Positions 6,377 through 50,515 of a stretch of 64,000 bases of DNA are shown here, piece after piece. Numbering within the stretch: the stretch's first letter is position 1; each line of letters starts with the position of its first letter. Under the pieces are notes generated by a model. It was not told the DNA's origin, searched no databases, and was given only the letters and a program-made list of their open reading frames with translations. Origin of the DNA: Kiritimatiellia bacterium (GTDB lineage: Bacteria > Verrucomicrobiota > Kiritimatiellia > RFP12 > UBA1067); contig JAFRDO010000010.1 in NCBI GenBank assembly GCA_017403825.1, positions 20,401-84,400 of the forward strand, given 5' to 3'. Made by a program: the position numbers and the translations under genes.

Positions 6377-8818
6377 ATGAACATCAAGAGCATAGTGGTT
6401 GCGGCTTCGCTGATGGCGCTTTGCGCTTCTGCTTCCGACGTATCCTACCCTTACGCCTCGGGCGATACGTCGCTTGGCGATGGTGCCGTGGTCCTTACCT
6501 ACGAGGAAGGAACGACCGACGTCAAGACGCTGACGGCGACTCCGACAGATGGCGGCACGGTCTCGATCACGGGCGACGCGATGACGTTTGCCGACGACGC
6601 GGCGATCACGCTGTCCACCTCCGGAACGGTCTCCTTCGCCAGCATGGTGACGACGCTTGGCAAACTCTCCCTTTCCCGCAGCGATGGAGCGTATGTCGTC
6701 TGGACGGGAAAGGCGCTCACGCCATCTACAACGGCCTCAGGTGTTGAAGTGTTTGCGGGACTTAACCGTGATACTGATCTTGAGCATTCGTCCATCGTTT
6801 TTGTCGGTGGTGCCGACGGCCCTTGCCCTGGGCGTTTTCACTACGTGAGCGGCCCAAGTAGTGGCATCTATACGCTGAATAATGTCAGACCGGACTATAC
6901 CTATTCCATTCGTCCTCAATTGAGTGGAAATTCACCCATTACGGGCGTCCGCTGTATAACAGGTTCACGTTCGCAACAGTTCGTGGAATATCCAGACGGT
7001 TCGCTATGGAACAGCAAAGGCGCGGAACATTACTGCGGAGAGAGCCAGGCAGTGCCAGGTGGCACGCGGATTGGAAACACATCTGACCTCAAGCTTACAA
7101 AGATAATCGTCCGAAAAAAAGGAATGTCGGAAAAGGTTTGGGTGCGTTTTGACGGCGGTGTGGCGCTGGGCGGCGAAACGTCCGTAGGCGCTGGCGTCGA
7201 GGCTGTGATAGGGGCGTCCGAGGGCGATGGTGCGGTAACGCTTGCCTGTCCGATCACAGGGAATGGCGATGTCCGCATCGCCACGTCTACAGCGACAACG
7301 GCTTTTGCCGGTACGTCGTATTTCGAGCCGTTCATCAACACGTCATGGCAGATTCTTGCTACAAATCGTTCGCTTTCGGCTCTTACGAGCCTTTCCGCAC
7401 ACATGTTGGGCGGAAGCCACAATTATGTTGCGTATGCTGACGTTGGCGGCACGCCAACCGATGCCTATTACATCAAGTACAACCCAGATTCCAACACCGC
7501 CACCTGCCAGTTCCAGTATTGGACAGGAAGTGGGCTCAAATTTGTTAAAGCCCAGCTTCGGCAGAATGGAGTAAATGTAGAGATCAAGGGCGTTGCCGCA
7601 GGATATTACACCAACAGTCAGTACAACTACAACAACAATGAGCCCCATGATTTTGACAATGATTCCAACAACGCTAATTTTGCAACGTCTGCGACGGCAT
7701 CAGGATATGGTATCCATTATATCACAGCCACGTTTGCTGGGGCGACGGGTATGGGTGTCGCGAGGCTTGAAAGTACGATGAACGCTATGTTCGGTAGCAT
7801 ATTGACCTTTGATGGAAGCAATGGCCCATTGCATGTAACCGTCACCAACCAGAACGCTTTCCCCATCTGCGGCGTGGTGAACGTCGGCACGAATGCAGAC
7901 GTGGCGTTGCGGGTAAAAGGATTGGGTCTTACATCGGGCGTTTCAGGAGGCACAAGCAAGATTGTCGTCCAGCGAGGCGGCATTTTGAGCCGTGGTGGCG
8001 GAGCGAATGGCCAGATTGGAACCTATCAGGATTTTGTCCTTGACGGTGGAACGTATGAAAGCATCGACTATAATGTTTATCAGAGCTACATCACTTTGAT
8101 GAATGGGGCTCACATGATAGGTGCTTCACCTCCGAGGACGGTGTACAGCTATTCCCCGCAATATTGGAGGGTGAGAGGCACAAGCCCTTCATTTATCGAC
8201 AATGGGATTAACATTTATGGCTCAGGTACTGCAAGCGGTGGAGAGTCAAAAAGATTCAGGATTGACGTTGCGGATGTCACAGGCGATGATGATGTTGATT
8301 GCACAGTTTCAAAGATATTTCATAACGATGGCAATCAGCAGCGTTTTTCGTATTTCAGGTTCGAGAAGTTGGGCGCAGGCACCATGCTTCTTGCAGGCTC
8401 TGGTTTGGCAGTGAAGCTGGAAACGTTTGTCAGCGGCGGTACGTTCCTTCTTGGGGCGAGCGGGATTGCGACAAACGAGTTTGTGCTGTGCGGCGGTAAC
8501 CTTGCGGTGGCGGCGAACGTCACCAACAACATTGGTGCGCTCACGGTGAGCAACGCCTGCACGATTGCGGTCGGCACGGGCGGGTCGCTCTCGTTCGCGT
8601 CGTTCACGGCGGATGAAGGACTTCAGCCGAAAGCAATCACGATCGATGCGCCGTTGGAAGGCAATGTCATCAAGTTCGACACTACTCTTACGGACGAGGA
8701 GCGCAACTTATTCCGCTGGAAGGATAGCGCGGCGCCGACGGGCGCAAGGCGCGTCGATCAGGACGCGAACGGCTACCTGCATCCGCACTCCGGTGGAATG
8801 TTGATCTTTATAAAGTAG
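6377..8818 (+). CDS. Large secreted protein with autotransporter-associated beta-strand (PATR-like) repeats, paralog 1
   Basis: An AGGAGA RBS precedes the signal peptide MNIKSIVVAASLMALCASA. The body is Gly/Thr-rich beta-helix-like sequence with 'GAGTxxL.G' repeats. The N-terminal ~100 aa and the C-terminal ~60 aa are shared with 16466..18499. Confidence 0.6.
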   Translation: MNIKSIVVAASLMALCASASDVSYPYASGDTSLGDGAVVLTYEEGTTDVKTLTATPTDGGTVSITGDAMTFADDAAITLSTSGTVSFASMVTTLGKLSLSRSDGAYVVWTGKALTPSTTASGVEVFAGLNRDTDLEHSSIVFVGGADGPCPGRFHYVSGPSSGIYTLNNVRPDYTYSIRPQLSGNSPITGVRCITGSRSQQFVEYPDGSLWNSKGAEHYCGESQAVPGGTRIGNTSDLKLTKIIVRKKGMSEKVWVRFDGGVALGGETSVGAGVEAVIGASEGDGAVTLACPITGNGDVRIATSTATTAFAGTSYFEPFINTSWQILATNRSLSALTSLSAHMLGGSHNYVAYADVGGTPTDAYYIKYNPDSNTATCQFQYWTGSGLKFVKAQLRQNGVNVEIKGVAAGYYTNSQYNYNNNEPHDFDNDSNNANFATSATASGYGIHYITATFAGATGMGVARLESTMNAMFGSILTFDGSNGPLHVTVTNQNAFPICGVVNVGTNADVALRVKGLGLTSGVSGGTSKIVVQRGGILSRGGGANGQIGTYQDFVLDGGTYESIDYNVYQSYITLMNGAHMIGASPPRTVYSYSPQYWRVRGTSPSFIDNGINIYGSGTASGGESKRFRIDVADVTGDDDVDCTVSKIFHNDGNQQRFSYFRFEKLGAGTMLLAGSGLAVKLETFVSGGTFLLGASGIATNEFVLCGGNLAVAANVTNNIGALTVSNACTIAVGTGGSLSFASFTADEGLQPKAITIDAPLEGNVIKFDTTLTDEERNLFRWKDSAAPTGARRVDQDANGYLHPHSGGMLIFIK

Positions 8819-8860: not shown

Positions 8861-9754
8861 ATGAACGCAAAAATCATCCTTGCGGCTGGCGCCATGCTTG
8901 CCGCGGCTGCCGCCGTCGCGGCGCAGCATCCCGCCCCGCCGATCCCGCCGAACTGGGAGCCGATCCTCACGCGCCCCGGCGCACTCGCGAAAGGGAGCGG
9001 ACACCTTCAAGGCATGTGCGTCACGTCCAACGCGATCTACGGAACGCTCCACGACGGCATCTACAAGTTCGACTGGTATGGACGGATGATCATGCACGTC
9101 CGTGCGGACAAGCACACTGGCGACATCTGCTTCTGGAACGGCAAGCTTTACACGGCAGTCTGCGGAAAGCAGGAGACGCCAGGATTCCGCGGACGTATCG
9201 ACGTGTGGGACGAGAACCTCAAACGCGTCGGCTCCATGGAGTTCAAGCGTTCCGCCGACGGCATCACGTGTCTGGACGGCGTTCTGTATGTGGGGCTGGG
9301 GCCGGCGCGCAATCCGGAAAAGCCATTTCGCGGCAACTACTTCGGCAAGTTCGACGCCGAGACGCTTGAGCCGCTCTGCGAGCCATTTCTCGTGGATCAC
9401 GGCTATGACGTGACTGCCGGTGTGCAGAACATGGCGACGGACGGAGAGAAGCTGTACATCAACTTCTATACGCCTGAGGAGGAGTATCCGTGCTTCTTCG
9501 TGTTCGACAAGGACTTCAAGGTGCTTCAGTCTCATGTGTTCGGCTGGCGGCATGGAGTGGATCTCGTGGGCGGGGGCGAGCCAGGGGAGGTGCGCCTCAT
9601 CTACGCGCTTACGATAAACTGCTGGTCCAAGGCGAGCATGCTGCAGCTTGATCCGGCGCCGTCCCAGACACTTTTCCGATATGCGGAATTGAAAGACGGG
9701 AAGATTCGTGACATTACACGCTACATCAAGTTTCGCAACGAGATGAAGAGGTAG
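8861..9754 (+). CDS. Secreted protein of the uncharacterised 'HxQGMC' domain family (copy 1)
   Basis: It carries a signal peptide. The conserved blocks [56 protein letters not shown] and GVQNMATDGEK are shared with 55129..56052, 56197..57072 and an internal segment of 23246..28318. Confidence 0.6.
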   Translation: MNAKIILAAGAMLAAAAAVAAQHPAPPIPPNWEPILTRPGALAKGSGHLQGMCVTSNAIYGTLHDGIYKFDWYGRMIMHVRADKHTGDICFWNGKLYTAVCGKQETPGFRGRIDVWDENLKRVGSMEFKRSADGITCLDGVLYVGLGPARNPEKPFRGNYFGKFDAETLEPLCEPFLVDHGYDVTAGVQNMATDGEKLYINFYTPEEEYPCFFVFDKDFKVLQSHVFGWRHGVDLVGGGEPGEVRLIYALTINCWSKASMLQLDPAPSQTLFRYAELKDGKIRDITRYIKFRNEMKR

Positions 9755-9784: not shown

Positions 9785-11332
9785 ATGAAACGGATGCTTG
9801 CGGCCTTCGGGCTTTGTGCGGTTGTTCTGAACGGGTCGGCTGCGGAGAACTTTGCCTTCGCGCCGTATGTGGAGCCGAATCCAGTGACGATGTCGGTCGA
9901 TTCCAATACGCTGGTGCGGCTCGACAGGAGCCAGACAGTGACGATTGCATGCGCGGACGGCCTGGAGCAGGCGGTGGAATGGGCTGAGGCGCGTTTCAGT
10001 GAATGGTTCCGTCTCACGAAGACGGGGTGGCTATTTCCATCTGTCAATGCGCCGCGCGTAGCGGCGGCGACGTTCGCTGGCGAACCGGTCGCGGGTGGCG
10101 ACGAGGCTTACGAGCTGGCGGCGCGTCCCGACGGGGTGTCGGTGCGGGCCAACACGCTTCAAGGCGTGCGCTATGCGCTCTACACGCTTCGTCAGACGAT
10201 TCTCGCCATGCCGCGTGACGTGCGCAAGGTCGAATGGTATGCGATGCCGGCACTGAAGGTGAAGGATGCACCGGCAATGAAGTTCAGGGGCATTCACCTT
10301 GGCTGGTACGTCAACCGCACCACGCCCGCAGAGATTGAGAAGAGGCTCCGTCTCGCTGCTTACCTCAAGTACAACTATGCGGTGATCGAACCTTGGGGCA
10401 CATTCCGTTCTGAGCGGCATCCGTGGTGGGGCTGGAAGGAGGGAACGATGACGCCCGACGTCACGCGGAGGCTCGTTAAGCTCGGCAAGGAGCTGGGCAT
10501 CACGCTCATTCCCCAGATCCCGGCCTTTGGCCACGCCTCGATGGGCATCACCTCCCCCGGACGCCACGCCATCTTGGACGCGCACGGGGAATATGCGCCG
10601 CTCTTCGAGTCGCTGAACGGCTGGAACTGGTGCATCTCCAATCCCGAGACGCTCAAGGTGCAGTTCGAGATCATCGACGAGCTGATGGAACTGTTCGACA
10701 ACCCGCCTTACTTCCACATCGGATGCGACGAGCCGGCAAAGCCGAACTGCCCGCGCTGCCTTGCCGCCGATTACCGTGCGCTGACGATCAAGCACATCAC
10801 GGCGCTCCATGACGGGCTGAAGGCGCGCGGTACAACGCCGATGCTCTGGCACGACATGTTCTTAAAGAAGCATGACCCGAAATGGCCGGGTTCCGTCGCC
10901 AACGGCACGGACGAATCGATCACGATCCTGGACGAACTGCCGCATGACATGGTGATCTGCGACTGGGTCTACGGACTGAAGTGCCCGGAGGGGAACTACG
11001 CGTCGCTCAAGTATTTCAAGGACAAGGGGTTTGAGGTCGTATCCTGTCCCTGCCACAAGGTCGACAACACGATGGTGCAGAGAGAATCAGTCCTCAAGCT
11101 CGGGCTGAAGGGAATGCTCGTAACCACATGGAGCTACGGGCAGGGCAAGGAGAAAGGCAAGGTGTTCGCCGATACGTTCGCTGGCGGCGCTGCGGCGGCG
11201 TGGGGATCGACCTATGAGGAAAGCCCGCTCTGGAAGTGGCATTATGATCTTGACCTGATCCGCAACCTGCGTGACGTGGTGCACGACATGAGTCTTGACG
11301 ATCACAATGCCACTGGCACATACATGGACTGA
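9785..11332 (+). CDS. Secreted GH20-like beta-N-acetylhexosaminidase-family hydrolase (paralog B)
   Basis: An AAGGAG RBS precedes a signal peptide. The gene is collinear with 2334..3896, sharing 'NYAVIEPWG', 'ITLIPQIPAFGHA', 'FHIGCDEPAKPNCPRC' and 'MLWHDM'. Confidence 0.6.
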   Translation: MKRMLAAFGLCAVVLNGSAAENFAFAPYVEPNPVTMSVDSNTLVRLDRSQTVTIACADGLEQAVEWAEARFSEWFRLTKTGWLFPSVNAPRVAAATFAGEPVAGGDEAYELAARPDGVSVRANTLQGVRYALYTLRQTILAMPRDVRKVEWYAMPALKVKDAPAMKFRGIHLGWYVNRTTPAEIEKRLRLAAYLKYNYAVIEPWGTFRSERHPWWGWKEGTMTPDVTRRLVKLGKELGITLIPQIPAFGHASMGITSPGRHAILDAHGEYAPLFESLNGWNWCISNPETLKVQFEIIDELMELFDNPPYFHIGCDEPAKPNCPRCLAADYRALTIKHITALHDGLKARGTTPMLWHDMFLKKHDPKWPGSVANGTDESITILDELPHDMVICDWVYGLKCPEGNYASLKYFKDKGFEVVSCPCHKVDNTMVQRESVLKLGLKGMLVTTWSYGQGKEKGKVFADTFAGGAAAAWGSTYEESPLWKWHYDLDLIRNLRDVVHDMSLDDHNATGTYMD

Positions 11333-16465: not shown

Positions 16466-18499
16466 ATGAACATCAAAAGCATACTGATCGCGACCTCGCT
16501 GATGGCGCTTGGCGCTTCGGCGGCCGATGTGTCCTACCCCTACACACCAGGCAACACCAACCCCGGCGCGGGCGTGACAATCGCCTTCGACGGCGACAAC
16601 AACATCACGTCGATTTCGGCGACGCCGACGGACGGCGGCTCGATTACCCTAACCGGCGGCGCTCCGACATTCGCAGCCGGCGCAACGATTACAGTGAATG
16701 CCCCGGGTTCGCTCGTGTTCACCGGACCGGCGACGGCGAATGGTGCGCTCGCCATAAACCGTGGTGACGACGCATACCTTGCCTGGTCGTCCGACACGGC
16801 CTTGAACGGCACTCTTACGGAGAGTCCGTGCTTTACCGGCCTATCCAGCACCGATCGCGATGAAGGAAGAATCGAGTTTTTCAGGCTTGTCTCGACAGGC
16901 CCTACAGACGACAATAACGTTTTCGGCCAACAGGGGCATTGGAATCTGATTACCTATACAGGATCCGGAATCTTTCAGTTCAACAAGGTATCGGCCGCTT
17001 ATGCGTTCACTGCCCGCGTTCAGCTCGGCCCTAAAACGTCCGGCGAGAACAATCTGTACGCTCGTTGCCTCAACGCCATCCGCTCGCCACGTTTCGGCCT
17101 TTACCCCGATGAAGAGGCTGGATGGGCGACGCTCAACATGTATAATGCGTGGAGCGGGAAAGCCCATCATACCGAACGCGGGCGGTATAACATCACAGAT
17201 TCTTACGGCACGGGTCTGGGTTCGACGGAGAACCTTGGCTTCCGGAAGATAATCATACGCCGCACAACCGTTCCCAACGGCCCGGTGTCTGTTCGTTTCA
17301 ATGGTGGCGCAACGCTTGGCTCAGAAACCACGATTGGCGCGGGGCTTGAGGCGGTGTTTGTGGCGACGGCCACCGATGCCGTTTCGCTTGGAAGTGCAAT
17401 TTCCGGCGATGGAGACCTCAGAATCGAGACGGCGTCGTCCGACGCGACTACGACGCTTGACTGTGATATGTCGGGCCTTGTCGGCGGAAAATTCACCATC
17501 GAGGGAAAAGACAACGCTATCCACACGGTCATGCGGACTGCAGACACGAAGTTTCCATCTGGTGGCGAAGTGCATATCAACACCAACGCCATCCTCACCC
17601 TCTATGGCAACACGGTAAGCACAAGTTATGCCTGGAAGCAGTCGCTGTTCGTGCATCGCGGTGGAACGCTGAAGACTATAGACAAGACCTGGCAAATCAG
17701 GCCCAAGCAGCAGATTATGCTCGATGGCGGTACATTCAACGTCCGCAACGGAGTGTTCTACCTCAACTACCTGGTTCTTTCAAATGCAACCATGAACGGC
17801 ACATCATCGCCGCGCTCGGTTTACAATGAATCGTCCGGGCAGTACTGGCGGGTGATAGGCACCGAGCCTTCGTATCTGACAAGTACGTATGGTGTTAACG
17901 TTTATGGGGCCTCCAGCAAGAGTTCCGCCGTCCCGTTCAGATTAGATGTCGGGGATGTGGCGGATGGAGTCGATTGCTTCATGAGTCGCATTACTTGTGA
18001 CACGGGCGGTACGAACGTTCCGTGGTTCTGGTTCGAAAAATATGGAGCGGGCACACTTAAGATTTCCGAGAATTCGAAGGGCGTGCGCATGGAGTCGAGG
18101 ATTTACAACGGAACTCTGCTATTGGCAGGAAACAGTATCATGACGAACGAGGTGCAACTGTTGGGCGGTAATTTCGCGATAGATGCAGGAAAGTCCAACG
18201 CCCTCGGAAACCTCACGGCGACCACCAATGCAACGCTCACGGTTGGGGCGGGTGGTTCTCTGTCGTTCGCGTCATTCACGCCGGGTGCGGGTCTGGCAGA
18301 GAAATCAATTGTCATTGACGCGCCGATGGAAGGGAATCTCGTTAGAATTGGCACGAACGGCAACGGTCTTGCGGCAGAGCATTGCAAATACTTCCGCTGG
18401 AAGGACGCTACGGACGCGACAAAACTCTGGCGCGTGGAGCAGGATGCTGACGGATATCTACATCCATCGATAAAGGGCGTAGTGATACTCGTTTATTGA
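16466..18499 (+). CDS. Large secreted PATR-repeat protein, paralog 2
   Basis: It has the signal peptide MNIKSILIATSLMALGASA. Its N- and C-terminal modules are shared with 6377..8818, including the terminal 'FRWKD...D.DGYLHP' followed by a hydrophobic strand. Confidence 0.6.
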   Translation: MNIKSILIATSLMALGASAADVSYPYTPGNTNPGAGVTIAFDGDNNITSISATPTDGGSITLTGGAPTFAAGATITVNAPGSLVFTGPATANGALAINRGDDAYLAWSSDTALNGTLTESPCFTGLSSTDRDEGRIEFFRLVSTGPTDDNNVFGQQGHWNLITYTGSGIFQFNKVSAAYAFTARVQLGPKTSGENNLYARCLNAIRSPRFGLYPDEEAGWATLNMYNAWSGKAHHTERGRYNITDSYGTGLGSTENLGFRKIIIRRTTVPNGPVSVRFNGGATLGSETTIGAGLEAVFVATATDAVSLGSAISGDGDLRIETASSDATTTLDCDMSGLVGGKFTIEGKDNAIHTVMRTADTKFPSGGEVHINTNAILTLYGNTVSTSYAWKQSLFVHRGGTLKTIDKTWQIRPKQQIMLDGGTFNVRNGVFYLNYLVLSNATMNGTSSPRSVYNESSGQYWRVIGTEPSYLTSTYGVNVYGASSKSSAVPFRLDVGDVADGVDCFMSRITCDTGGTNVPWFWFEKYGAGTLKISENSKGVRMESRIYNGTLLLAGNSIMTNEVQLLGGNFAIDAGKSNALGNLTATTNATLTVGAGGSLSFASFTPGAGLAEKSIVIDAPMEGNLVRIGTNGNGLAAEHCKYFRWKDATDATKLWRVEQDADGYLHPSIKGVVILVY

Positions 18500-20051: not shown

Positions 20052-21118
20052 ACGTCGCAAACGGATGGTACCTCACCGGCTGGTGCGGGCAGTTCGAGAA
20101 AGGCTCGGTGTTCGTGCCGCGCAAAGGCGAGCCGTGGCTTCTCGGCGGACCGGAGTCGGAGCCGTTCGCGTTGCAGTCTTCGGCCGTTACGAAGATTCGC
20201 TGCTTCCCGGTGTTCATGGTGCCTGAGGAGGAGTACCCCAACGCGCACATCATCGGCTTTGCCGACCTCTACAAGGAGATGTCGGAGATGGGGCTGCCCT
20301 TGAAGCGCATCGGCGTCGTCGGCACGAACACGATTCCGCACCAGGTCTACCTCGATTTCCAGGCCGGCTTTGCGGGCGTGGAGCTCGTGGACATCACGGG
20401 CGACTACGAAGCCATGCGCGCCTACAAGAGCGACTGGGAGCGCGAGAACATGCTGAAGGCCGTCGGGCTCTGCGACCTCGCATACGATGCGATGAAGGCG
20501 AAGATCGTTCCAGGAGCGTTCGAGTATGAGGTCGCCGCCGCCGGAGAAGCGGTGTGCCGCGCGAATGGCGCGACGAACTTCGCGTACTCCACGATCGTCG
20601 GCTCCGGCGAGCGCGCCAACGCCGTCGTCCCGACGGCTACGAACCGCCAGATGCAGCCGGGCGAACTGGTCATGATAGGCATCGCGCCGCGCTTCAACGG
20701 CTACGCCGGAACGTTCGGCGACACGCTTCCCGTGAGCGGCGAGTACACCGCCGACCAGAAGGAGTGCATGAAGCATCTCCGCGAAGTGATGCACCTTACG
20801 AAGGCCATGCTGAAGCCGGGAGTGAGCGGCAAGGAGATCGACGTGCCGGGACGCGAATACTACAAGAAGCACGACCTCTTCAAGTACCTCGTCTGCCCGT
20901 TCGCGCACACGATCGGACTCATGGAGGCGGAACTTCCGTTCTACGGGCCGAACTCCGAGGACGTCCTCGCCCCCGGCATGACGGTGATGGTCGACGTGAG
21001 CTTCTTCGGGCACCCGAAGTTCAACGGCGCGCGCATCGAGACGGGCTACATCATCACCGACACCGGCTGCAAGCCGATGTCGCCGAAGATGGACGCTTAC
21101 TTCGCGCAGTCCCTGTAA
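19946..21118 (+). CDS. M24 family metallopeptidase (Xaa-Pro aminopeptidase / creatinase-like)
   Basis: A creatinase-like N-domain is followed by a pita-bread fold with metal-ligand-like blocks ('VMIGIAPRFNGYAG', 'HTIGLMEAE', 'VMVDVSF'). Confidence 0.8.
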   Translation: MSYYNKEESNKRIAAVQAILEKKNLDAALVYFDELNVANGWYLTGWCGQFEKGSVFVPRKGEPWLLGGPESEPFALQSSAVTKIRCFPVFMVPEEEYPNAHIIGFADLYKEMSEMGLPLKRIGVVGTNTIPHQVYLDFQAGFAGVELVDITGDYEAMRAYKSDWERENMLKAVGLCDLAYDAMKAKIVPGAFEYEVAAAGEAVCRANGATNFAYSTIVGSGERANAVVPTATNRQMQPGELVMIGIAPRFNGYAGTFGDTLPVSGEYTADQKECMKHLREVMHLTKAMLKPGVSGKEIDVPGREYYKKHDLFKYLVCPFAHTIGLMEAELPFYGPNSEDVLAPGMTVMVDVSFFGHPKFNGARIETGYIITDTGCKPMSPKMDAYFAQSL

Positions 21119-22803
21119 CGATCGACCTCGACGCTGAAGACAAGTTCGTGCGACTGGCCTGGGGCTAGCTCAAGCGCGCCTTCCTTCGTCCGGCAGCTCG
21201 GCCCCAGGCCGATGAAACGCTCGGTGTCGCCGGCGTCAAGGTTGCGGTTGTGCGGCTCGACATTCCCCGGCGACCACACGACGACGCCGGTGTTGCCGCT
21301 GGCGTGCATGCGCAGTTCACGCCCCGCCCCCGCATCGACAAGGGCGAAAGCGTCGCTGCGACGGGGGAACGCGGCGTCCATGCCGCCGACCGCCGCAAAG
21401 TCGTTCTCCTTCACTCCGCGCAGCGTCACCGCGCCATAGCGACTTACCGCAAAGTACGGCTGGATGCCCTCGGAAAACGAAAACGGACGGTCCCCCGTGT
21501 TCTTCGTGCGCATCGTCATTTCAAGGCGGCTTGTCATGCGCAAGGTCAGCTCAAGGTCGGCGGCATACGGGAAATCCGGATCCTCGCCGGCGGCAAGCGA
21601 GAGCCCCAACGTGACGGACGACCCTCCGGCCTCATTGGGATCGCGATGCCGCACGGCAAGTCTGCGGTTGCGGGCTAAGCCGTGGATTGAGCTGGCCTTG
21701 TCCCCCTTCTTGCCGAACCACGGCCAGCAAACCGATATCCCGCCATGAGACCAGTCGCCGTCGGCAGATTCGGTCCGCCGGGGCATGAAGAGCAGTTCCT
21801 CTCCGGCAGGAGTCTTCCACGAGAGAATGCGTCCGCCTTGAAGATCGATGACTGCACGCCCGCCAGGGCCGACGACATCAACCGTGCGGGACGGCGCTGT
21901 CGGCGACATTTTGACATCTCCGCAAAAGCCCATCTGCACGAGCCAGTCCCAGAGGAGCGGACGCCACGCGAGGAATTTTCCCATAATCGCGCCTTTGGAC
22001 TTGAAGTCATGGTCGCGCTTCGCGAACACGTGAAGGTCGCACGGAACGTGCATCGCGTGCAGCCGTGAATAGACCTTTACGCTCCCCATGGGCGAGATTA
22101 CATCGGCATCGCCGTGCATGAAGAACACGGGACATGTCGCAGAGTCAAACTTGAACTCGGGGAGTATGACATCCTCGGCGAGGTCGCCGCCATGGGTGTT
22201 CGCGCTGTTCACGCCGTCGGACAGCACATACGCCGGATACGCAGGCGCCGCAAAGGCGATATTGCAGGGCAGAGAGTCGATTTCATCGATAGGCTCGTAG
22301 GTGCCGGTCTGCGAGGAAAGCGCCATCAGAAGCGCAAGGTGTCCGGCGGCGGAATAGCCGAAGAAGCCGATCTTGTCCGGGCTGACACCGTGCGCCGCCG
22401 CGCCGTGGCGCACGAGCCGGACGGCCCTTTGCGCATCCTGCCATGCCGTGACGTGCTTCGCGACCTTCTTCGGGCGCGGCGTCCTGTGGTGCAGGCGCAC
22501 GACCGTCATCCCCTTCTCAAGCAGCCAGTCGCGGAATCCCCCTCCCATCGACCCATTCGGCACCCAGTTGCAGATGCCGTATCCTCCGCCGCACGTCACG
22601 ATCATCACGGCGTCGGTGGTCTTGTTGGAAGGCACGAACCACTCGATGAACGGCTCGTTGTACTGATTCTCCTCAAGGGACGGCACCTTGCCCTCCGGCC
22701 AGAGAGCTATGCGCTCGCCCTCCGGATCTCCCGCTAAAGGGTCCGTAGCAGCCATTGCACCCGCCGCGAACGACGCGACGACACAGGCCGAAACAAAACT
22801 CAT
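21097..22803 (-). CDS. Secreted bifunctional-looking protein: N-terminal alpha/beta-hydrolase esterase (GYSAAGH) fused to a C-terminal hexose-6-phosphate mutarotase / aldose-1-epimerase-like domain
   Basis: The start was chosen at the ATG at 22803, which has an AGAAGGG RBS and a clean signal peptide (MSFVSACVVASFAAGAMA); the ORF extends to 22833. The esterase GxSxG and an 'HGDAD' block are followed by a YeaD-like 'CWPWFG...HGLARN' motif. Confidence 0.65.
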   Translation of the reverse strand: MSFVSACVVASFAAGAMAATDPLAGDPEGERIALWPEGKVPSLEENQYNEPFIEWFVPSNKTTDAVMIVTCGGGYGICNWVPNGSMGGGFRDWLLEKGMTVVRLHHRTPRPKKVAKHVTAWQDAQRAVRLVRHGAAAHGVSPDKIGFFGYSAAGHLALLMALSSQTGTYEPIDEIDSLPCNIAFAAPAYPAYVLSDGVNSANTHGGDLAEDVILPEFKFDSATCPVFFMHGDADVISPMGSVKVYSRLHAMHVPCDLHVFAKRDHDFKSKGAIMGKFLAWRPLLWDWLVQMGFCGDVKMSPTAPSRTVDVVGPGGRAVIDLQGGRILSWKTPAGEELLFMPRRTESADGDWSHGGISVCWPWFGKKGDKASSIHGLARNRRLAVRHRDPNEAGGSSVTLGLSLAAGEDPDFPYAADLELTLRMTSRLEMTMRTKNTGDRPFSFSEGIQPYFAVSRYGAVTLRGVKENDFAAVGGMDAAFPRRSDAFALVDAGAGRELRMHASGNTGVVVWSPGNVEPHNRNLDAGDTERFIGLGPSCRTKEGALELAPGQSHELVFSVEVDRYRDCAK

Positions 22804-23245
22804 GCATGCCCTTCTTTCGATCATCATTGCCAACCCTTTCTTCTAGTTGTTGTCTACGGAGATTATAACACACTTCGCCGCATCATCGCGCAAAGAGAAT
22901 ATCATTCAAGAAACGAGACTATAGCGACTAACGGGACTTCCAAGACAATCGGGACTTCCGAGACTTGCCCGCCGAAGCCTTGGCGAAAGCGGGTCCCGTT
23001 TGTCCTGGCCGTCCCGAATGTCCCGAAAAGCTCGCATTTCTTGTCATGCGCATATTGTACCATTTTTCAGACGATTTACGGGCGCAACGAGCACATCTAC
23101 TCTTTTAGGCGTCACCGTGCAATGATTTTATTTGCATTTGCAAAATTTACAGTATGAGAGGCGGGTGATATTTGGTATCATATAACCATAAGAATGGACA
23201 TGCACTTATGAAAAACACGATGCAATCGGAAGGAGTCGGATTCCT

Positions 23246-26200
23246 GTGAAGAAACTGGCGGTAATGATGGCTGCGCTTGGCGCGCTAGCGGCGATTGCCG
23301 ACGGCGGTGGCGCCGCTGCAAAGGACAATGTGGAGCTGCTGCCTTCAGCCTTCGACGGCAAGACGCCTGTCGTCGTCGAGACCGATGCGTTCAGGCTCGT
23401 CATCAATCCAGATGCGACGGCGCAGTCGCTTGTCATCAAGGCGACAGGCGAGGAATGCCTGGCGTCCAAGGCGGGGCTGCCAGTGTTCGCATCCGTCCAG
23501 AAGCGTCCGTTCAACAACGAGACGCGCCTGGTGCAGATGGCCAAGCGCACGATGTACCCCGCCAACCGCATCAGGCGCGACGGCGACATCTTGCGCATCG
23601 GGTTCGACACCGCGCCCTACGAGGTGGAGGTACGCGTCCGGGAGCGGGCAGGCTACGCCGCGTTCGAGCTCGTGCGGCTGATCTCCAACACCGTGCAGGA
23701 GAAGCAGTACGGAGGACTGGAGCCGTGGCAGATGGACGTGCCGCCAGTCGAGGAGTTCAGGCTCCTCCAGCTGCCGGTCATCGAGCGCAAGAACTTCGGC
23801 GACTGGCTGAACGTGGAGTGGGACGACCGTGCGGCGGTGGCAGTGGTCGGTGCGACGCCCTACATGGACGTGGATCACGAGAAGCGCGGCGACTGGCGGC
23901 TGCTGCGTGCGGACGCGCTCTCCGGCATCGGCCACGGCATCACGAACGGCGTTGCGGCAATCGCCGCCGGAGCCAGCAAGGATGAGCTCCTCGCGCAGAT
24001 CGAGGCGATGGAGAACGACTATGACCTGCCGCGCGGTGTCGCAAGCCGCCGCAATCCCCTTCTCAACGCCTCCATCTACTGGACGAGCGACATCTCCGTA
24101 CACAACGTCGACGAGCATGTCGCCAACATGAAGAAGGGCGGCTTCCGCATGGCGCTCCTCTACTATTCCGGCATGTTCCTGAACGGACACGCCTACACGA
24201 ACTACGGTGACTACGATCTCAATCCCGAACGTTTCCCAAACGGCTACGACGACCTCAAGGTCGTTCTGGCGAAGATCAAGGCCGCCGGCGTCACGCCCGG
24301 CTTCCACACGCTCCAAACCTTCATCGGCTTCAAAAGCCGCTACGTGACGCCGGAAGCCGATCCGCGACTCAACGTGAAGCGGTATTTTGCACTGGAACGG
24401 CCCTTGCCTGGCGATGGCGCAACTTGCGACGTATATGTGGCGCAGAACCCGGTCGATGCGCCGATGCACCCGAAGTGCCGCGTACTCAAGTTCGGCACGG
24501 AGCTGATGCATTACGAAAGCTACACCACAACGCCTCCTTACAGGTTCACCGGCGTGGAACGCGGCTACTTAGGCACGACCGTCAAGTCGCACGGGCGCGG
24601 CGACGGCGGCGGCATCCTTGACGTGTGCGAATGCACGGCTACAAGCTGCTGCATCGACCAGAACACGTCCCTTCAGGACGAGATCGCCGAGAAGATCGCG
24701 AAGGTCTACGACTGCGGCATGGAGTTCCTCTACTTCGACGGCTCCGAGGACGTGAACGTGCCCTGCAACGTGAACATCTCCCTTTCGCAGTGGAAGGTTG
24801 CCAAACATTGCGGGAAGATGCCGCTTTTCACAGAAGGCTGCGCGAAGACGCACTTCGGCTGGCATCTCCAGAGCGGAGCGAACGCCTTTGACGTGTTCCC
24901 ACCGGAGGTGTTCAAGGAGAAAATCATCGAATATCCGTACAAGGCGGCGCAGCGTCTGGCGAAGGATTTTACTCGTGTCGATTTCGGGTGGTGGGGAATC
25001 CGCGCCAAGGGTCCGAAAAGCGTAGGCACGCAACCTGACATGTGGGAATACGGCACGTCCAAGGCGGCAGCGTTCGACTGTCCGGCGACGATGCAGATGA
25101 ACCTTCACCGCATCCATGCGAACGGACGCATGGACGATCTCTTCGAGACCGTACGACGCTGGGAGGACGTGCGTGCGCGGAAGTGGCTCACGCCGGAGCA
25201 GAAGGAAATGCTGAAGGATCCGAAGCGCGAGTTCCACCTCTACCTGAATGATAAGGGCCAATATGAACTGGTAGAATGGAATCAGCTTGACGTGGCCGGC
25301 GGCAAGTGGACGGACGTGCGGGCCTTCATTTTCGAGCGCAACGGACGACGCGTCGTCGCCTACTGGCATGTTCACGACCGCGCACGCCTCGTCTTCGCCG
25401 AGCCGCTGGACGGCACGGAGTTCCTCGATGCCTCCGGCGTGAAGTATTTCGAGACATCGCTTCCGGCCGAGACCGTCCGCGCCGCCTTCGCCTCCGCCGC
25501 GGTTCATGGAATTCCCACTGACCGACGCATCGAGATATACGGCTTTTTTGATGACAATGACGGACACATCCAGGGGATGTGCACCGACGGAGAATTCATC
25601 TACCTCACCCAACAGAGCTGGATATACAAAGTCGACCGCCAAGGCAAGCTGGTGCGCAAGATAAAGACGCCAAAGCACACCGGCGACGTCTGCTTTCACG
25701 ACGGGCGGATATACGCTTCGAGCATCCACTACTACGGCGAGTATCGCGGGCATGGCATCATAAGGGTTTATGACACCGACCTGAATCTCCTGAAGGAGAA
25801 GATGCTTGAGAAGTGCGGCCTTGACGGCATCACGTGGCTCGACGGCTACCTCTACGTCGGCGGCGGAGCGCACAAGCCGACCATCCCGCACAAGCCGGGA
25901 GAGGCGCCGGAAACGAAGACTCCTCACTTCGACAACAATCTGTTCAAGGTCGATCCGAACACGCTTGAAATCGTCGAGCGCTATGTGCTGAACCACGGCA
26001 CGAAGACATGCTATGGGATTCAGAACGCGACGACGGACGGAAAACTCCTCTACTTCTGCTACTACGTGCCCGGACGTAACATCCCCAACTGCATCGTCTA
26101 TGACAAGAACATGCACGTCGTGCGGACCCTGACGTTCGAGGCTGGCAAGGGCTCAGATTTCGGACAGGGCTTTGACTTCGTCGGCGCCGTCCCGGGCGGG

Positions 26201-28318
26201 AACAGATTCCTCCGCGTTACGACACAAAACGCATGGGTGAGGAACCGCAGGCCAGAGGATGTGTTCACCGCCATCGTGGAGACTGTTGAAATCAGAGATT
26301 CGGACGTGCCGCCGCGGCACGTCCCGAAGCGCATCATGGGCCGCGACTACTGGCCTGCCCTTTACAGGTACCGCGACTGGCTGCCAGACGCCAAATACGA
26401 CAACAGCGCCTTTGAGGTGCGGTTCGACAACCCCGACATCTTCAAGCTGCCCGCGTTCCGCGACGCGGTTCCCGTCTACTGGGCACGCAACGATCCGCCG
26501 CCAATTGATGGCGCAAGCGGCACGTGGCGGCGTTTTGCAGATAACTTCACGGCCACCGAACGTGATCGCGAGATCATCACCTCAAACCCCCTTCCTGACC
26601 GTCCGTTCCTTTTCGCGGCAACGGCCAAGCGTCAGTTCTGGACATGGGGCGCGGAATGCGACCTCGACTACGCCGACTTCGCCGACTGGCGGACGCGGCA
26701 TCCTAACGCCCTCTACAGCGGCACGATCCTCGAATGGGACAACGACCTGATGCTTGCCTACCGCCGCATGGCAAGCATGACAAACACGGCGCGCCGGGCG
26801 GAGGTCGAAGCGCTGATCGGAAAGAGCCCCCCGAAGACGCGCGAGGAGCGGATGGACGTGATGCGACGGCACTATGCCGACCGCCACAAGGCGGCTTACG
26901 GCGACAAGATGGCAGTACACGCCTCTCACGTGTTCAGCCAGCACTTCGGCGGCGACTGCGGCGCGGACATGCTTGTCGTCGAAACGACCAACTCGTCCGG
27001 CAGCCCGACCAGCGACTCCGAATACCGCTGGAACCTCGCCCCGATGTTCGTCCGCGGCGCAGCGCGTCAGTTCGACCGTCCGTGGGAATGGTACTGGGCC
27101 GCCTACATGAACGGCTTTCGCACGAACGGTGAATGGCACAATGACGCCGCCTGCAGATATCCCATAGGCCCATCCGCCAAGAATGGGTCCGGAGCAATCA
27201 ACCGTCCGGAATACGGCGTCTCCGGCAACCTGATGCGCCGTCTCTACTACTTCTCATACCTGAACGGCGCGAACATCACGCAGCCCGAGGAATGGTCCGC
27301 CTACTTCCTCACCTGGGACGATGCCGCGGGCAAGACCGTGCTTACCTGTCGCGGACGCGACTACGCGGCCTACCACGATTTCACCGTGAGGAATCCAGGA
27401 CGCGGCACGCCCTATACTCCTATCGCCATCTGCATTCCCCTTTCGCGCGGTTATACGGCCTTCGGAGGCTGGCCGTGGGCGGAAAAAGGTTATGGCTACA
27501 CGCGGAGCGACTTGATGTCAGATGCTGTGTTATTCTCGCTCGTCCCAGGCTTCGAGCGGGCAAAGGCGATGAAGGCTGGCGTCGAGACGAATCTTCACAA
27601 CTCGCGCTTCGCCCAGATGTACGACGTGATTTGTCCCGACGCGCCAAGCCAGTCGGCAGAGACGGCACTTGACGTGATGAAGAGCTACAAGGCCTTGATC
27701 ATAGCCGGCGAGTTCGCCGATCCCAAGGTCGCCCAATGTCTCGCCGAATACGAGAAGAGCGGCGGACGGGTAATTATGTTGTCGGATGACATTCTCCAAG
27801 ATCGGTCTGTTTTAACCACAGATTACACCAAAGACACGGAAAGACATAATGGAGGAAACAGCAATTCCGTGTGTTCCATGTCTTCCGTGGTAACACGGCA
27901 AATGAAAGCGGGGAAAGTGAGTTTCCCCAAGATCGAGTCGATTCTTGAAAACCTTCAGAAGGACTATTTCCCATTCAAGGTCGAAGGCGACTGCCTGTAC
28001 GGCGCAAACCGCACGGAGGGCGGATGGTGGCTGTGGGTGTTCAACAACAAGGGTATCACAAAGTTCACCGACGCACCGCATACCATTGACCATTCGTTCG
28101 ATGCCGACATTACGGTGTCATGCGCGAAAGACAGCATCACAACAGCAAAGGAACTGCTGGCGGAGAAGCCAGTGCCAATCGTGGAAGGCAAATTCAAGTA
28201 TCGCATAGCAGCAGGCGACCTCGCCGTATTCGAGGTGAACACCGCTACGCAAAACCGAATGTTCAGCGCAAAGGAACATGACCGCGAAGCCTACATTGTG
28301 CAGGTCAGACGGTTTTGA
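23246..28318 (+). CDS. Giant secreted multidomain protein (1690 aa): N-terminal module, uncharacterised TIM-barrel-like catalytic-type domain, embedded HxQGMC domain, and a large C-terminal uncharacterised region
   Basis: A GTG start follows a GGAAGGAG RBS and leads into a signal peptide. The frame is open and uninterrupted for 5 kb. An internal segment around 25525-26150 is homologous to the stand-alone HxQGMC proteins. A segment around 24100-25000 is homologous to the central domain of 28396..33825. Confidence 0.7.
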   Translation: MKKLAVMMAALGALAAIADGGGAAAKDNVELLPSAFDGKTPVVVETDAFRLVINPDATAQSLVIKATGEECLASKAGLPVFASVQKRPFNNETRLVQMAKRTMYPANRIRRDGDILRIGFDTAPYEVEVRVRERAGYAAFELVRLISNTVQEKQYGGLEPWQMDVPPVEEFRLLQLPVIERKNFGDWLNVEWDDRAAVAVVGATPYMDVDHEKRGDWRLLRADALSGIGHGITNGVAAIAAGASKDELLAQIEAMENDYDLPRGVASRRNPLLNASIYWTSDISVHNVDEHVANMKKGGFRMALLYYSGMFLNGHAYTNYGDYDLNPERFPNGYDDLKVVLAKIKAAGVTPGFHTLQTFIGFKSRYVTPEADPRLNVKRYFALERPLPGDGATCDVYVAQNPVDAPMHPKCRVLKFGTELMHYESYTTTPPYRFTGVERGYLGTTVKSHGRGDGGGILDVCECTATSCCIDQNTSLQDEIAEKIAKVYDCGMEFLYFDGSEDVNVPCNVNISLSQWKVAKHCGKMPLFTEGCAKTHFGWHLQSGANAFDVFPPEVFKEKIIEYPYKAAQRLAKDFTRVDFGWWGIRAKGPKSVGTQPDMWEYGTSKAAAFDCPATMQMNLHRIHANGRMDDLFETVRRWEDVRARKWLTPEQKEMLKDPKREFHLYLNDKGQYELVEWNQLDVAGGKWTDVRAFIFERNGRRVVAYWHVHDRARLVFAEPLDGTEFLDASGVKYFETSLPAETVRAAFASAAVHGIPTDRRIEIYGFFDDNDGHIQGMCTDGEFIYLTQQSWIYKVDRQGKLVRKIKTPKHTGDVCFHDGRIYASSIHYYGEYRGHGIIRVYDTDLNLLKEKMLEKCGLDGITWLDGYLYVGGGAHKPTIPHKPGEAPETKTPHFDNNLFKVDPNTLEIVERYVLNHGTKTCYGIQNATTDGKLLYFCYYVPGRNIPNCIVYDKNMHVVRTLTFEAGKGSDFGQGFDFVGAVPGGNRFLRVTTQNAWVRNRRPEDVFTAIVETVEIRDSDVPPRHVPKRIMGRDYWPALYRYRDWLPDAKYDNSAFEVRFDNPDIFKLPAFRDAVPVYWARNDPPPIDGASGTWRRFADNFTATERDREIITSNPLPDRPFLFAATAKRQFWTWGAECDLDYADFADWRTRHPNALYSGTILEWDNDLMLAYRRMASMTNTARRAEVEALIGKSPPKTREERMDVMRRHYADRHKAAYGDKMAVHASHVFSQHFGGDCGADMLVVETTNSSGSPTSDSEYRWNLAPMFVRGAARQFDRPWEWYWAAYMNGFRTNGEWHNDAACRYPIGPSAKNGSGAINRPEYGVSGNLMRRLYYFSYLNGANITQPEEWSAYFLTWDDAAGKTVLTCRGRDYAAYHDFTVRNPGRGTPYTPIAICIPLSRGYTAFGGWPWAEKGYGYTRSDLMSDAVLFSLVPGFERAKAMKAGVETNLHNSRFAQMYDVICPDAPSQSAETALDVMKSYKALIIAGEFADPKVAQCLAEYEKSGGRVIMLSDDILQDRSVLTTDYTKDTERHNGGNSNSVCSMSSVVTRQMKAGKVSFPKIESILENLQKDYFPFKVEGDCLYGANRTEGGWWLWVFNNKGITKFTDAPHTIDHSFDADITVSCAKDSITTAKELLAEKPVPIVEGKFKYRIAAGDLAVFEVNTATQNRMFSAKEHDREAYIVQVRRF

Positions 28319-28395
28319 TATACTTCGGCATAGATAATAACGATTGGACTTGTAAATTGAGAAGTGACGAACGAGGATTAACTCTTCGCCTTGCG

Positions 28396-31300
28396 ATGAG
28401 TCTTGCCTTGGCGGCTGGCCTCGTCAGCGGAGCGGAGGAGCTGCGCTTGCCAGGTGAAGACGGAACGCATGTGGCGGCCTCGTGCGCACCCTTTCCAGAC
28501 GCCCTGAGCGCGTTCGTCTGGCGCAACTGGCCGGTGGTGTCCGTCGCGCGCATGGCAAAGGCCGTCGGAGCGGAACCGTCCGCGCTGGAGGCGATAGCCC
28601 GTGAGATGTCGCTTCCCGTACCCCAGCCGCCAGTTTCGCCCCTCTGGCGACGCAAAGGCTACATCACGGTCGTCAAGCGCAATTGGCATCTCCTTCCGTA
28701 CGACCAGCTGCTGACGATGACGGACATGACGCGCAAGGAACTCGCCTACTCCCTCGTCGAGGACGACTTCCTGTTCAGCAAGCTCGGCAACACAAAGCCG
28801 CTCTGCGCACCGGTCGTCTGCACAGAGGAGACGGCGGCGAAAGGCCGTGCGCAGCGCCGCTGGATCGCAAAAACGCTGAAGGAAGAGGGAGTCGTGCCGA
28901 TGGCGCCGGAGGAACCGCGCTTCCGTTTCATCGAAGAGCTGTCGGCCATGCCGTCGCACGACGCACACCCGCCCGCCGCGCAGTCCTCGTTCGACCTGCG
29001 GCTCATCTTCTCGTACTTTGCGGACTACGGCGATCCTCTCGGCGACGATGCGGTCGGTTCGTATCCGGATGGGCTTCTCGCGCGTCTCGCCGACAGCGGC
29101 GTGAACGCCGTCTGGCTGCATACCGTGCTGTCGACGCTCGCCAAGGATCCGCTCTACCCAGAGTTTGGCGACGGCTCGGAGAGGCGCATCGCCAACCTGC
29201 GCACGCTCGTCGCACGGGCGGCGCGCCACGGCATCAAGGTGTATCTCTACGTGAACGAGCCGCGCGCGCAGGACGACGCCTTTTTCGAGAAACCTGGCCG
29301 TCTGGAGATGCGTGGCGCCAGGCGACAGTCGGGCGGAAGCGGCTACGCACGCTGCACGTCGCATCCAGAAACGCGCCGCTGGCTGCGCGACTCGCTGCGG
29401 CAGGTATTTTCGCAGGTACCGGGCCTGGGCGGCGTATTCACGATCACGATGAGTGAGAACCTCACCAACTGCGCCTCGCGGTGGAAACGCGAGACATGCC
29501 CGCGCTGCAAGGATCGAAGGGTCGGAGACATCGTGGCCGAGGTGAACCGCACCATCTGGGAGGGCGTGAAGGCTGGCGATCCGAATGCAGAGGTCATCGC
29601 ATGGGACTGGGCGTGGCCGAAGGACGAGCGCACGTCCATCGTCGCACAGCTGCCGGCCGGGTCGTGCCGAATCATGTCCGTAAGCGAGATAGGCATGCCT
29701 TTCGTGCGCGGCGGCGTCACGTCCGAAATCAACGAGTACTCCCTTTCGACGCCGGGACCGAGCGACCGTGCGAAGGCTATCTGGGCGGCGGCGAGCGCAC
29801 ACGGGATGAAGACGGCAGCGAAGGTGCAGGCCGCGCTCACCTGGGAAATGAGCGCCGTGCCATATCTGCCGGTCATGGATATCGTCTCCGAACACGCGCA
29901 CAACCTGATCGATAACGGCGTTGACGGCGTGATGCTCTCCTGGTCGCTAGGCTCCGCGCCGACGCCAAACCTTGCCGTCTACACAGACTGCCGCCGAGGC
30001 GAGGAGCCCGGCGCAGTGCTCGACCGCCTCGCGGAACGGCTCTACGGACGTACAGGAGTCGCAGCGGCACGGGCCGCGTGGACCGCCTATTCCGACGGCT
30101 TCCGGGAATACCCGTTCAACATATCGTCCGTCTACTGCGGAAACCACACGCTCGGACCTGCCAACCACCTTTATGCGGAGCCGTCCGGCTGGACGGCCTC
30201 GATGGTGGGCTATCCTTTCGACGACCTGAAACGGTGGCGGGCGATTTTCCCCGAAGACGTTTGGCTAACGCAGATGGCGAAGGTACGCGATGGGTTCAAG
30301 AAGGGAAATGCGGCGTTCGAGGGCCTCGTCGCGTCACTGACCGGCGAGCGGCGGACGGCAGCAGAACGCGAGCTTGGACTCTTCCGCGCGATCGAAAACC
30401 ATTTCTGCGCCGTTGTCGACCAGGGGATGTTCGTGATGGCGCGCGAAAAAGGCAACAAGGCCGAGATGATCGCCTGCGCCCGCCGCGAACTTGAAACGGC
30501 ACGGAAGCATCTCGACCTAGTGCGCGCCGACAGCCGCATAGGATACGAATGCTCCAACCACTACTTCTACATTCCGCAAGACATCATCGAGAAGATGCTG
30601 AACTGCCGAGATGCCATTGCCAGGCTTACCGGAAACACAGGTACGGACACGCCAATCGCGGCGACGTGGTCTACGGACGACTTCGACCTTTCGCTCGCAA
30701 CCAACGGTTGCCTTGTATCCCTGAAGGAAAAGGAGACAGGGCGCGAACTCCTGCGCTGGAAGGGAAAGTTCGCCTCTGTCGTGGCCCAGGACGGCCGGGA
30801 GACGAAGGTCTCTTCTGTAAGCCGCGACGACGACGGACGGTTACACCTCTCCTTCGACGGCATGGACGGCGAGGCGGTGATGTCCGTCCGCGCCACGCAT
30901 TGGGGACTCGTCTTCACTGCGGAACGCCTGACCGTGCCGGACGCAAAAGAGTTCAAGTTCCTTATCGTCTATCCCGTCTGCCGGACGTACAACGGCTCGA
31001 TGATGAACGCCATGAGCGACGACGAATCGGCCGTCGTGCTGCGCACCTACGAGCTCGCGGCGGACATGCGCAACCGCGGCAACACAGTGCTGGAGGCCGT
31101 GGCGGAGGTCGCGGCGCATCCGCCGGCCCTGCCGTCGCGCGCCGCGCTAGTCGCCGCGCCACGTCGGCAAGTCCTCTTACGGATGAAGGAACTGACGCGC
31201 GATGCCGGAATCCTGTCGTCGCCCTGCGGCGGCGCATGGAGCCTGGAGGCTCCGGAGAACCGCGAGTCATACATCATCGGCAGCGTATCGCGGGAGTCCG

Positions 31301-33825: not shown

Positions 33826-33869
33826 CTAGTTCTCCAGCTCAATATAACTCGCATAAAAGGAACATATCA

Positions 33870-42269: not shown

Positions 42270-42272
42270 ATC

Positions 42273-50511: not shown

Positions 50512-50515
50512 AATC

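Follow-up and report, generated by a model that had tools for sequence, protein, structure and literature searches.

A multiplied family of exported propeller proteins from Kiritimatiellae, predicted to be remote homologues of type I glutaminyl cyclases with a rebuilt central pocket

Introduction

The domain that a sequence-only reading of this DNA had marked out as a secreted "HxQGMC" family is predicted to be an exported, autonomous five-bladed beta-propeller of ~265 residues. Judged from profile-profile alignment and from its structural model, it shares remote homology, blade by blade, with the type I glutaminyl cyclases. By the same comparisons, where the cyclases have their pocket, at the opening of the central channel, the propeller family has its most conserved part, with a rebuilt chemistry. 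The module is a movable cassette that has multiplied in rumen and gut Kiritimatiellae, where it is deployed among glycoside hydrolases, sugar esterases and phosphoesterases. It constitutes a new family within a known fold superfamily: the fold and the superfamily had already been described, whereas no description of the family, of its pocket or of its deployment was found in the resources searched.

The Kiritimatiellae are abundant, poorly understood degraders of glycans in the rumen and gut, and much of their degradative gene content is unannotated. The propeller is an expanded family of this group, with ~650 clusters at 50% identity, and is tied to hexosaminidases, rhamnosidases, esterases and phosphoesterases. 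The fold itself is unsurprising, and the family is best regarded as a testable lead for carbohydrate-enzyme specialists. Whether it proves to be an enzyme or a binder, it offers a 30-kDa target that is easy to express and has six residues that are obvious choices for mutagenesis.

Copies of the domain in the window

The window, by which we mean the whole stretch of 64,000 nucleotides analysed, contains exactly four copies of the domain (copies A to D, Table 1), as revealed by a scan of its six-frame translation with a family HMM (224-300 bits). Four homologous copies had been proposed at roughly these places from sequence inspection, and the scan bore this out. Pairwise BLASTP identities were 56% for A and C, 49% for B and C, 42% for A and B, and 33-37% for D against the other three, with E-values of 1e-27 to 1e-110, and the four segments were collinear from the signal peptide through to the C-terminus in a MAFFT alignment. 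The paralogues thus align well outside low-complexity regions, and their similarity is, on these sequence comparisons, far above chance and no low-complexity artefact. The initial estimate of the domain size, ~200 residues, was too small; the module spans ~250-265 residues, the limits of copy D being given by orthologues that lack it.

Table 1. Coordinates of the propeller copies, their motifs and neighbouring genes in the window
Feature	Position	Strand	Description
813-aa exported repeat-rich protein	6377-8818	+	Directly upstream of copy A (42-nt gap); no Pfam or PDB match
Copy A	8861-9754	+	Stand-alone exported propeller protein, 297 aa; signal peptide ~aa 1-21, propeller ~aa 30-290
HxQG motif of copy A (H48, Q50, G51)	9002-9013	+	Just ahead of blade 1's innermost strand; counterpart of F22-x-Q24-G in the papaya cyclase (hhalign)
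HTGD motif of copy A (H85, G87, D88)	9113-9124	+	At the start of blade 2's innermost strand; D88 one position away from the catalytic Glu of the cyclases
Blade 4 pocket residues of copy A	9425-9469	+	Q189 corresponds to cyclase N155, Y203 to cyclase W169
GH20 beta-N-acetylhexosaminidase-like gene	9785-11332	+	Directly downstream of copy A (30-nt gap); Pfam Glyco_hydro_20 and Glyco_hydro_20b
677-aa paralogue of the 6377-8818 protein	16466-18499	+	Members of its family likewise occur as propeller fusions elsewhere
1690-aa exported host protein of copy D	23246-28318	+	N-module aa 1-735; C-module aa ~1018-1690
Copy D	25508-26296	+	Propeller cassette, ~aa 755-1017 (about 263 aa) of the 1690-aa protein; 238 bits; all signature residues kept
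Copy B	55129-56052	-	Stand-alone exported propeller protein, 307 aa from MKKIVLL; 224 bits; all signature residues kept
Copy C	56197-57072	-	Stand-alone exported propeller protein, 291 aa, in tandem with B; 249 bits; all signature residues kept
HMM match spans	8861-9745; 25541-26305; 55162-56052; 56230-57072		Family HMM, six-frame scan

Signal peptides, described initially for all of the stand-alone copies, were recognized on A, B and C and also on the 1690-aa protein that carries copy D. They were called by inspection of the sequence features (a K/R-rich start, a hydrophobic core and an AxA-type cleavage site) rather than by a dedicated predictor. Copy B probably starts at the MKKIVLL sequence at position 56052, with the longer open reading frame to 56184 left unused.

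Representation in databases

None of the four copies matched a model in Pfam-A (2025) or NCBIfam (2026) at E <= 1, and 53 diverse relatives were likewise without a Pfam match that would name the family, in agreement with the original assessment that the domain cannot be placed in a characterized, named family. Searches of the PDB with single propeller copies returned nothing usable, and nothing was found in the literature on the family or on the use of folds of the cyclase type in the breakdown of glycans. When 5.8 billion proteins were searched by word index, 195 relatives were retrieved, for which every listed source name was "hypothetical protein" and the organism names, where given, were those of Kiritimatiellae or Opitutaceae MAGs. 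To map the extent of the family further, an HMM was run exhaustively against 1.84 billion cluster representatives; it detected 648 clusters (at 50% identity) at E <= 1e-3, 356 at E <= 1e-10 and 75 at E <= 1e-30.

Fold and relationship to type I glutaminyl cyclases

The AlphaFold2 model, computed from a 45-sequence alignment (pLDDT 92.0, pTM 0.88), consists of a low-confidence N-terminal helix, corresponding to the signal peptide, followed by 20 strands that form five four-stranded blades. A beta-propeller or a beta-sandwich had been suggested initially; the five-bladed model argues for the former and against the latter. The top Foldseek match was the cyclase 3nol. The nearest folds are enzymes, not Kelch domains, and the closest solved structures are type I glutaminyl cyclases.

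The closest known system is, accordingly, the plant and bacterial type I glutaminyl cyclase (PF05096, Glu_cyclase_2; PDB 3mbr, 3nok, 3nol and 2iwa). Comparison by hhalign of a diverse family alignment (A2, members 20-37% identical to copy A) with a PF05096 alignment gave probabilities of 95.7% in local and 97.7% in global mode, with the five blades paired in order; this PF05096 alignment was put together from 54 metagenomic database fragments and one composite sequence from Myxococcus, and is thinly populated in its N-terminal part. The in-register alignment scored 65.0, compared with 29.3 for a blade-shifted control, 15.5 for a reversed control and 9.5-16.7 for three column shuffles. A narrower alignment of closely related members (A1) reached probabilities of only 8.5-40%, indicating that the homology signal needs profile diversity. 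The sequence identity between the propeller family and the PF05096 cyclases is 11-16%, and the PF05096 model itself matched none of 57 members scanned (the four window copies and the 53 diverse relatives) at E <= 1. A phmmer alignment to the cyclase 3nok (E 0.42) was one blade out of register, and was dropped for residue mapping.

The active-site residues of the papaya cyclase (F22, Q24, F67, E69, W83, W110, N155, W169 and K225; PMC9436314) were transferred to the family through the profile alignment. F22 maps to H48, Q24 to Q50, F67 to T86 (beside H85), W83 to C101, W110 to D133, N155 to Q189, W169 to Y203 and K225 to N253, while E69 falls in a gap beside D88. Only one of the nine residues is identical (Q24, as Q50), and two replacements, N155 by Q189 and W169 by Y203, are conservative. 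In place of the aromatic wall (F22, F67 and W110) and the catalytic Glu of the cyclases, the family presents HxQG in blade 1, HxGD in blade 2, an Asp in blade 3, and a Gln and a Tyr in blade 4. The cyclase active site is therefore not kept, and function cannot be transferred from the cyclases. A confident match to a characterized family, which the initial reading had said would remove the novelty, was found in part: the profile and structural link to the glutaminyl cyclases is confident, so that the fold is not new, but it does not extend to the active site.

The possibility that members are genuine, divergent glutaminyl cyclases, which form pyroglutamate from an N-terminal Gln or Glu in exported proteins, must be weighed here. 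The type I cyclases are nearest in structure and alone give a significant profile-profile match, the propellers are exported, as are bacterial cyclases, and besides the shared Gln, D88 lies one position from the catalytic Glu. This explanation is nevertheless considered very improbable, given the replacement of F22, F67, W83 and W110 by His, Thr, Cys and Asp, and the failure of the PF05096 model to recognize any of the members scanned at E <= 1. Moreover, at least 14 paralogues per genome and fusions to glycosidases would make no sense for a housekeeping enzyme that modifies N-termini; the propeller genes come in many copies and in fusions with carbohydrate-active enzymes, in contrast to the bacterial cyclases 3mbr, 3nok and 3nol, each a single-domain protein. 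The physiological role of type I glutaminyl cyclase is itself still unclear (PMC7948796).

The conserved central pocket

Seven sequence blocks had been described as strictly conserved among the four copies. When written as regular expressions, each of them fits only one to three of the copies, and none fits copy D. Instead, 14 individual residues are kept in all four: H48, Q50, G51, K69, H85, G87, D88, Y97, D133, Q189, Y203, G232, D234 and N253. Many of these are near-invariant throughout the family, with H48, Q50 and G51 each present in 250 of 250 members, H85 and G87 each in 252 of 253, D88 in 251 of 253, Q189 in 226 of 227 and Y203 in 223 of 227. K69 (244/255), Y97 (240/249) and D133 (211/243) are somewhat more variable. 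The proposed invariance of Cys and His residues was confirmed for the two His only. C53 is found in 193 of 253 members (Ala in 43), C90 in 208 of 252 and C137 in 136 of 243; since the Cys residues are replaceable across the family, a fold stabilized by disulfides or by Cys-bound metal is not indicated.

In the AlphaFold2 model, read together with the family conservation, the signature residues enter the innermost strands of successive blades. Because they precede these strands in one blade after another, they are predicted to converge on one central site, with no once-per-blade repeat. K69, D71, W72 and G74, which are off-pocket by strand position, may be purely structural. D88 is the only invariant carboxylate among ~250 members, in which two His are also invariant, and this combination makes a classical two-carboxylate glycosidase unlikely.

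Comparison with other propellers

Five-bladed propellers are known among glycoside hydrolases of the GH43, GH32 and GH68 types. No sequence relationship to these enzymes was detected, and the fold match to them is weaker than that to the cyclases. Their three conserved carboxylates contrast with the one invariant carboxylate and two invariant His of the propeller family, and a search for the catalytic carboxylate triad among the ~250 members did not find it. The YjiK/SdiA-regulated domain (PDB 3qqz), another close system, showed no sequence match to the family. An analogy in deployment may be offered by FpGalNAcDeAc of Flavonifractor plautii (PDB 6n1b), a five-bladed propeller N-acetylgalactosamine deacetylase that is the partner of a GH36 glycosidase; by comparison, copy D follows a GH31/GH36-like module, and GH20 and GH123 partners are common in the family.

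A likeness to Kelch propellers (Keap1 and the designed SAKe proteins) is seen in the blade motif, which comprises a Gly, an aromatic residue and "DG-x-hydrophobic-Y". Family profiles matched, by sequence, only designed Kelch propellers, with E-values down to 3e-14, and, more weakly, Keap1, with E-values of 4e-4 to 0.06; the matches involve blades 2-3 only, repeated along the target. Kelch propellers are six-bladed and present a face that binds proteins, compared with five blades here. None of the Pfam Kelch models scored above threshold, Kelch_2 being found in one of 53 members at E 0.034. On these sequence data the Kelch similarity is a resemblance at the level of blades and does not amount to membership.

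In propeller lectins, sugar sites are usually repeated between blades. As judged from the strands of the AlphaFold2 model and from residue counts over the family, conservation in the new propellers is central and asymmetric rather than per blade. Pfam models of carbohydrate-binding modules (CBMs) gave no match in the window copies or in the 53 diverse members.

Genomic setting of the propeller genes

The genes that flank copy A recur beside propeller genes elsewhere. Homologues of the 813-aa protein adjoin propeller genes at loci L006, L027, L024, L040 and L033, and GH20 genes do so at L006, L025, L026, L055 and L056. The association with the surface-protein family extends to gene fusion: P0121 (1081 aa) consists of a propeller and a 38%-identical copy of the 813-aa protein over 768 aa, and P0142 (1007 aa) of a propeller and a 41%-identical copy of its 677-aa paralogue over 666 aa. 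There is, however, no constant gene partner. The 813-aa family adjoins the propeller at 5 of the 54 loci compared, and the other neighbours are heterogeneous.

These observations bear on the possibility that the propeller is a Kelch-like scaffold, which docks exported enzymes to each other, to surface proteins of the 6377-8818 family or to the envelope. The Kelch-like blades 2-3, the repeated adjacency and fusion to the 813-aa family, and the position of copies B and C beside a type II secretion secretin gene would all be in keeping with such a role. We regard it as improbable, as the predicted propeller has five blades rather than six, Kelch Pfam models remain below threshold, the best fold neighbours are enzymes, the 813-aa partner is present at so few loci, and an invariant polar pocket at the cyclase site is atypical of a peptide-docking face.

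Copy D had been described as lying between two hydrolase-like modules of its 1690-aa host, and this could be supported for the N-terminal module only. The N-module (aa 1-735) has a GH31/GH36-like fold, composed of a beta-sandwich, a TIM barrel and a second beta-sandwich; its profile gave no sequence match, the fold alone being informative. For the C-module (aa ~1018-1690), no Pfam or PDB match was found. Two orthologues of the host (P0321 and P0332, 79-85% identical) are without the cassette, and in these proteins the residues corresponding to aa ~754-758 are joined to those corresponding to aa ~1018-1021 via ~11 residues. The propeller is also absent from all of the 120 best N-module homologues. 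Together, these findings indicate that copy D is a cassette that was inserted into the linker in this lineage.

Across the family, the propeller occurs as a stand-alone protein, in tandem pairs, or as an N-terminal, C-terminal or interior part of other enzymes. Fusion partners include GH20 (P0195, E 1e-96), GH123 (P0235), GH5 (P0141) and a SASA sialate esterase (P0205), as well as GH20b with a beta-helix (P0209), the N-terminal Ig domain of GH78 (P0080), a 3-keto-disaccharide hydrolase (P0166), a HAD protein (P0123) and a PTP-like phosphatase (P0213). Free shuffling onto unrelated catalytic domains is classic for non-catalytic binding modules, and to that extent speaks against a catalytic reading. 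Pfam annotation of 41 immediate neighbours of propeller genes identified GH20 (3), GH2 (3), GH78 (2), GH106, GH3, GH127, GH5 and GH39, together with AXE1, Metallophos (2), PHP (2), GDPD and PTP-like phosphatase. The role in glycan breakdown that had been proposed for the fused copy fits this context of GH20, GH123, GH5, GH2, GH78, GH106, GH3, GH127, GH39 and esterase fusions and neighbours.

A genome scan with alignment A1, which reaches close relatives only (A2 is too unconserved for such a scan), located 47 propeller loci. Their titles name Kiritimatiellae, Verrucomicrobia, Lentisphaerae or uncultured bacteria, and the animal sources, where stated, are the gut or rumen of sheep, goat or cattle. 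At least 14 propeller copies were found in the loci fetched from a single sheep-gut MAG, RGIG5820, in which synteny with the window extends around copy A (L006) as well as around copies B and C (L020). The presence of ceramidase, GDPD, YhhN, Metallophos, GFO/IDH/MocA and AP_endonuc_2 genes (L003, L058 and L059) prompted us to consider a theme of glycolipid or inositol-phospholipid head groups, which was not adopted, because these gene families are generally abundant in this bacterial group.

Possible functions

The reading that we favour takes the propeller as a catalytic accessory that is autonomous and has a His/Asp pocket at its centre, a proposal, drawn from residue conservation and analogy, that we hold to have an even chance of being right. 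The near-invariance of polar His, Gln, His, Asp, Gln and Tyr residues among members that are only 20-25% identical, in the midst of varied glycosidase neighbours, favours a catalytic core with variable specificity, and the pocket appears single and central, as in the homologous cyclase, which favours the same interpretation. The module would then not bind passively but work as a small accessory enzyme, its single central pocket holding one sugar residue or substituent. The pocket would act by His/Asp acid-base chemistry, possibly with assistance from a metal that the His pair and the Asp would bind. Loops that vary around this constant core could set the substrate of each paralogue, in the way that five-bladed debranching enzymes of the GH43 type are deployed. 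Among the candidate reactions are beta-elimination, hydrolysis, and the loss or rearrangement of a group carried by an amino sugar or a uronic acid. Speculatively, the residues are compatible with metal-assisted amide or ester hydrolysis, with elimination of the His/Tyr type, or with acid-base rearrangement. If the propeller is catalytic, it represents a new enzyme family and the repurposing of a cyclase scaffold for sugar chemistry.

The main rival is a non-catalytic, lectin- or CBM-like propeller, in which the pocket, possibly metal-bound, recognizes a sugar or an anionic group and thereby holds enzymes, or the free protein, on the substrate. We consider it rather unlikely. Its appeal lies in a module that is exported, multi-copy, dispensable in close orthologues of the 1690-aa protein, and attached at the N-terminus, at the C-terminus or internally to a wide range of unrelated catalytic domains. 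Binding residues normally vary within a CBM family, however, while here six pocket residues are 98-100% conserved despite the low overall identity. The asymmetric conservation, with one central site, also departs from the between-blade repeats usual in propeller lectins, conserved aromatic residues are few in the pocket (only Y203), and in the nearest homologues this pocket is an enzyme active site. A binder would be an unusual propeller-type carbohydrate-binding module.

The catalytic reading can be taken one step further, to a proposal that we put forward tentatively and with rather more doubt than conviction. The family would be a new class of carbohydrate-active enzymes on the glutaminyl-cyclase scaffold, in which an aromatic peptide site has given way to a His/His/Asp/Gln/Tyr centre, possibly holding a metal. 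Such enzymes would act on a substituent or linkage of amino-sugar or uronate glycans, or of glycolipid head groups, with the paralogues specialized for different substrates. Should this be true, the propellers would form a new CAZy family, so far found mainly in gut and rumen Kiritimatiellae.

Copies B and C lie in a housekeeping region between pyrG and the secretin gene, with no adjoining glycosidase, a position that speaks against the favoured, catalytic-accessory reading. A tandem propeller pair beside a secretin gene recurs in MAG RGIG5820 (L020).

Genes surrounding copy A

The propeller complement at copy A differs between the window and a syntenic genome. In the syntenic region of MAG RGIG5820 from sheep gut (locus L006), an extra propeller paralogue (L006 5063-5929), 48% identical to copy A, was found between an 808-aa surface protein and the copy A orthologue. 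The window contains no counterpart of this gene, indicating that the gain or loss of a tandem propeller was recent. The two exported repeat proteins of the window (813 and 677 aa) are paralogues of each other, and neither had a match in Pfam or PDB. Their signal peptides are nearly identical (MNIKSI..SLMAL.ASA), and both carry a possible sorting signal at the C-terminus, made up of the motif RV-D/E-QDA-N/D-GYLHP and, after it, a short hydrophobic tail. Propeller fusions are known among the relatives of these repeat proteins.

Further features of the window (nt; strand where reported)
Feature	Position	Strand
Exported Gly/Thr/Ala-rich repeat protein, 813 aa	6377-8818	
Exported Gly/Thr/Ala-rich repeat protein, 677 aa	16466-18499	
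Exported 578-aa protein, fused esterase (BD-FAE / alpha-beta hydrolase) and aldose 1-epimerase domain	21097-22833	-
C-module of the 1690-aa protein, 675 aa	26297-28318	
1836-aa ORF	28315-33825	
1121-aa protein, NAGLU (GH89 alpha-N-acetylglucosaminidase) and BNR/sialidase-like propeller	33822-37187	
Nitrogen-assimilation and nucleotide-synthesis gene block	40713-55132	
Longest ORF for copy B	55129-56184	-

The 1690-aa protein and downstream genes

The C-module, which follows propeller copy D in the 1690-aa protein, gave neither a Pfam match nor a PDB sequence match, and no homologues of it were found among the fetched propeller loci. There is a 4-nt overlap between the 1836-aa ORF and the stop of the 1690-aa ORF; the sole match of the 1836-aa ORF was a weak one to CBM_11. 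Its first ~770 residues correspond to a separate 761-aa gene (80% identity) in L003, a propeller locus of a related contig, indicating that the gene has been split or fused differently between relatives. In the 1121-aa protein, the N-terminal and TIM-barrel domains of NAGLU are joined to a BNR/sialidase-like propeller at the C-terminus. At locus L052, a gene of the new propeller family is directly followed by a homologue of the 1121-aa protein with 42% identity.

Propeller loci in related contigs

Genes for GDPD, Metallophos, GFO/IDH/MocA, and AP_endonuc_2 proteins recur at three propeller loci, L003 (8812-15472), L058, and L059, some of which also carry an alkaline ceramidase or YhhN-family gene. 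The gene content of these loci hints at glycolipid or phospholipid head-group degradation, or at oxidative glycoside cleavage.

Position of copies B and C and probable start of copy B

Copies B and C are set apart from the glycan-degradation region by the nitrogen-assimilation and nucleotide-synthesis block, which encodes GMP synthase, the large and small glutamate synthase subunits, type III glutamine synthetase, an amidotransferase, carA, and pyrG. For copy B, the longest ORF has 44 codons ahead of the signal peptide, an extension that does not look secretory; the family alignment agrees better with translation starting at 56052 (MKKIVLL).
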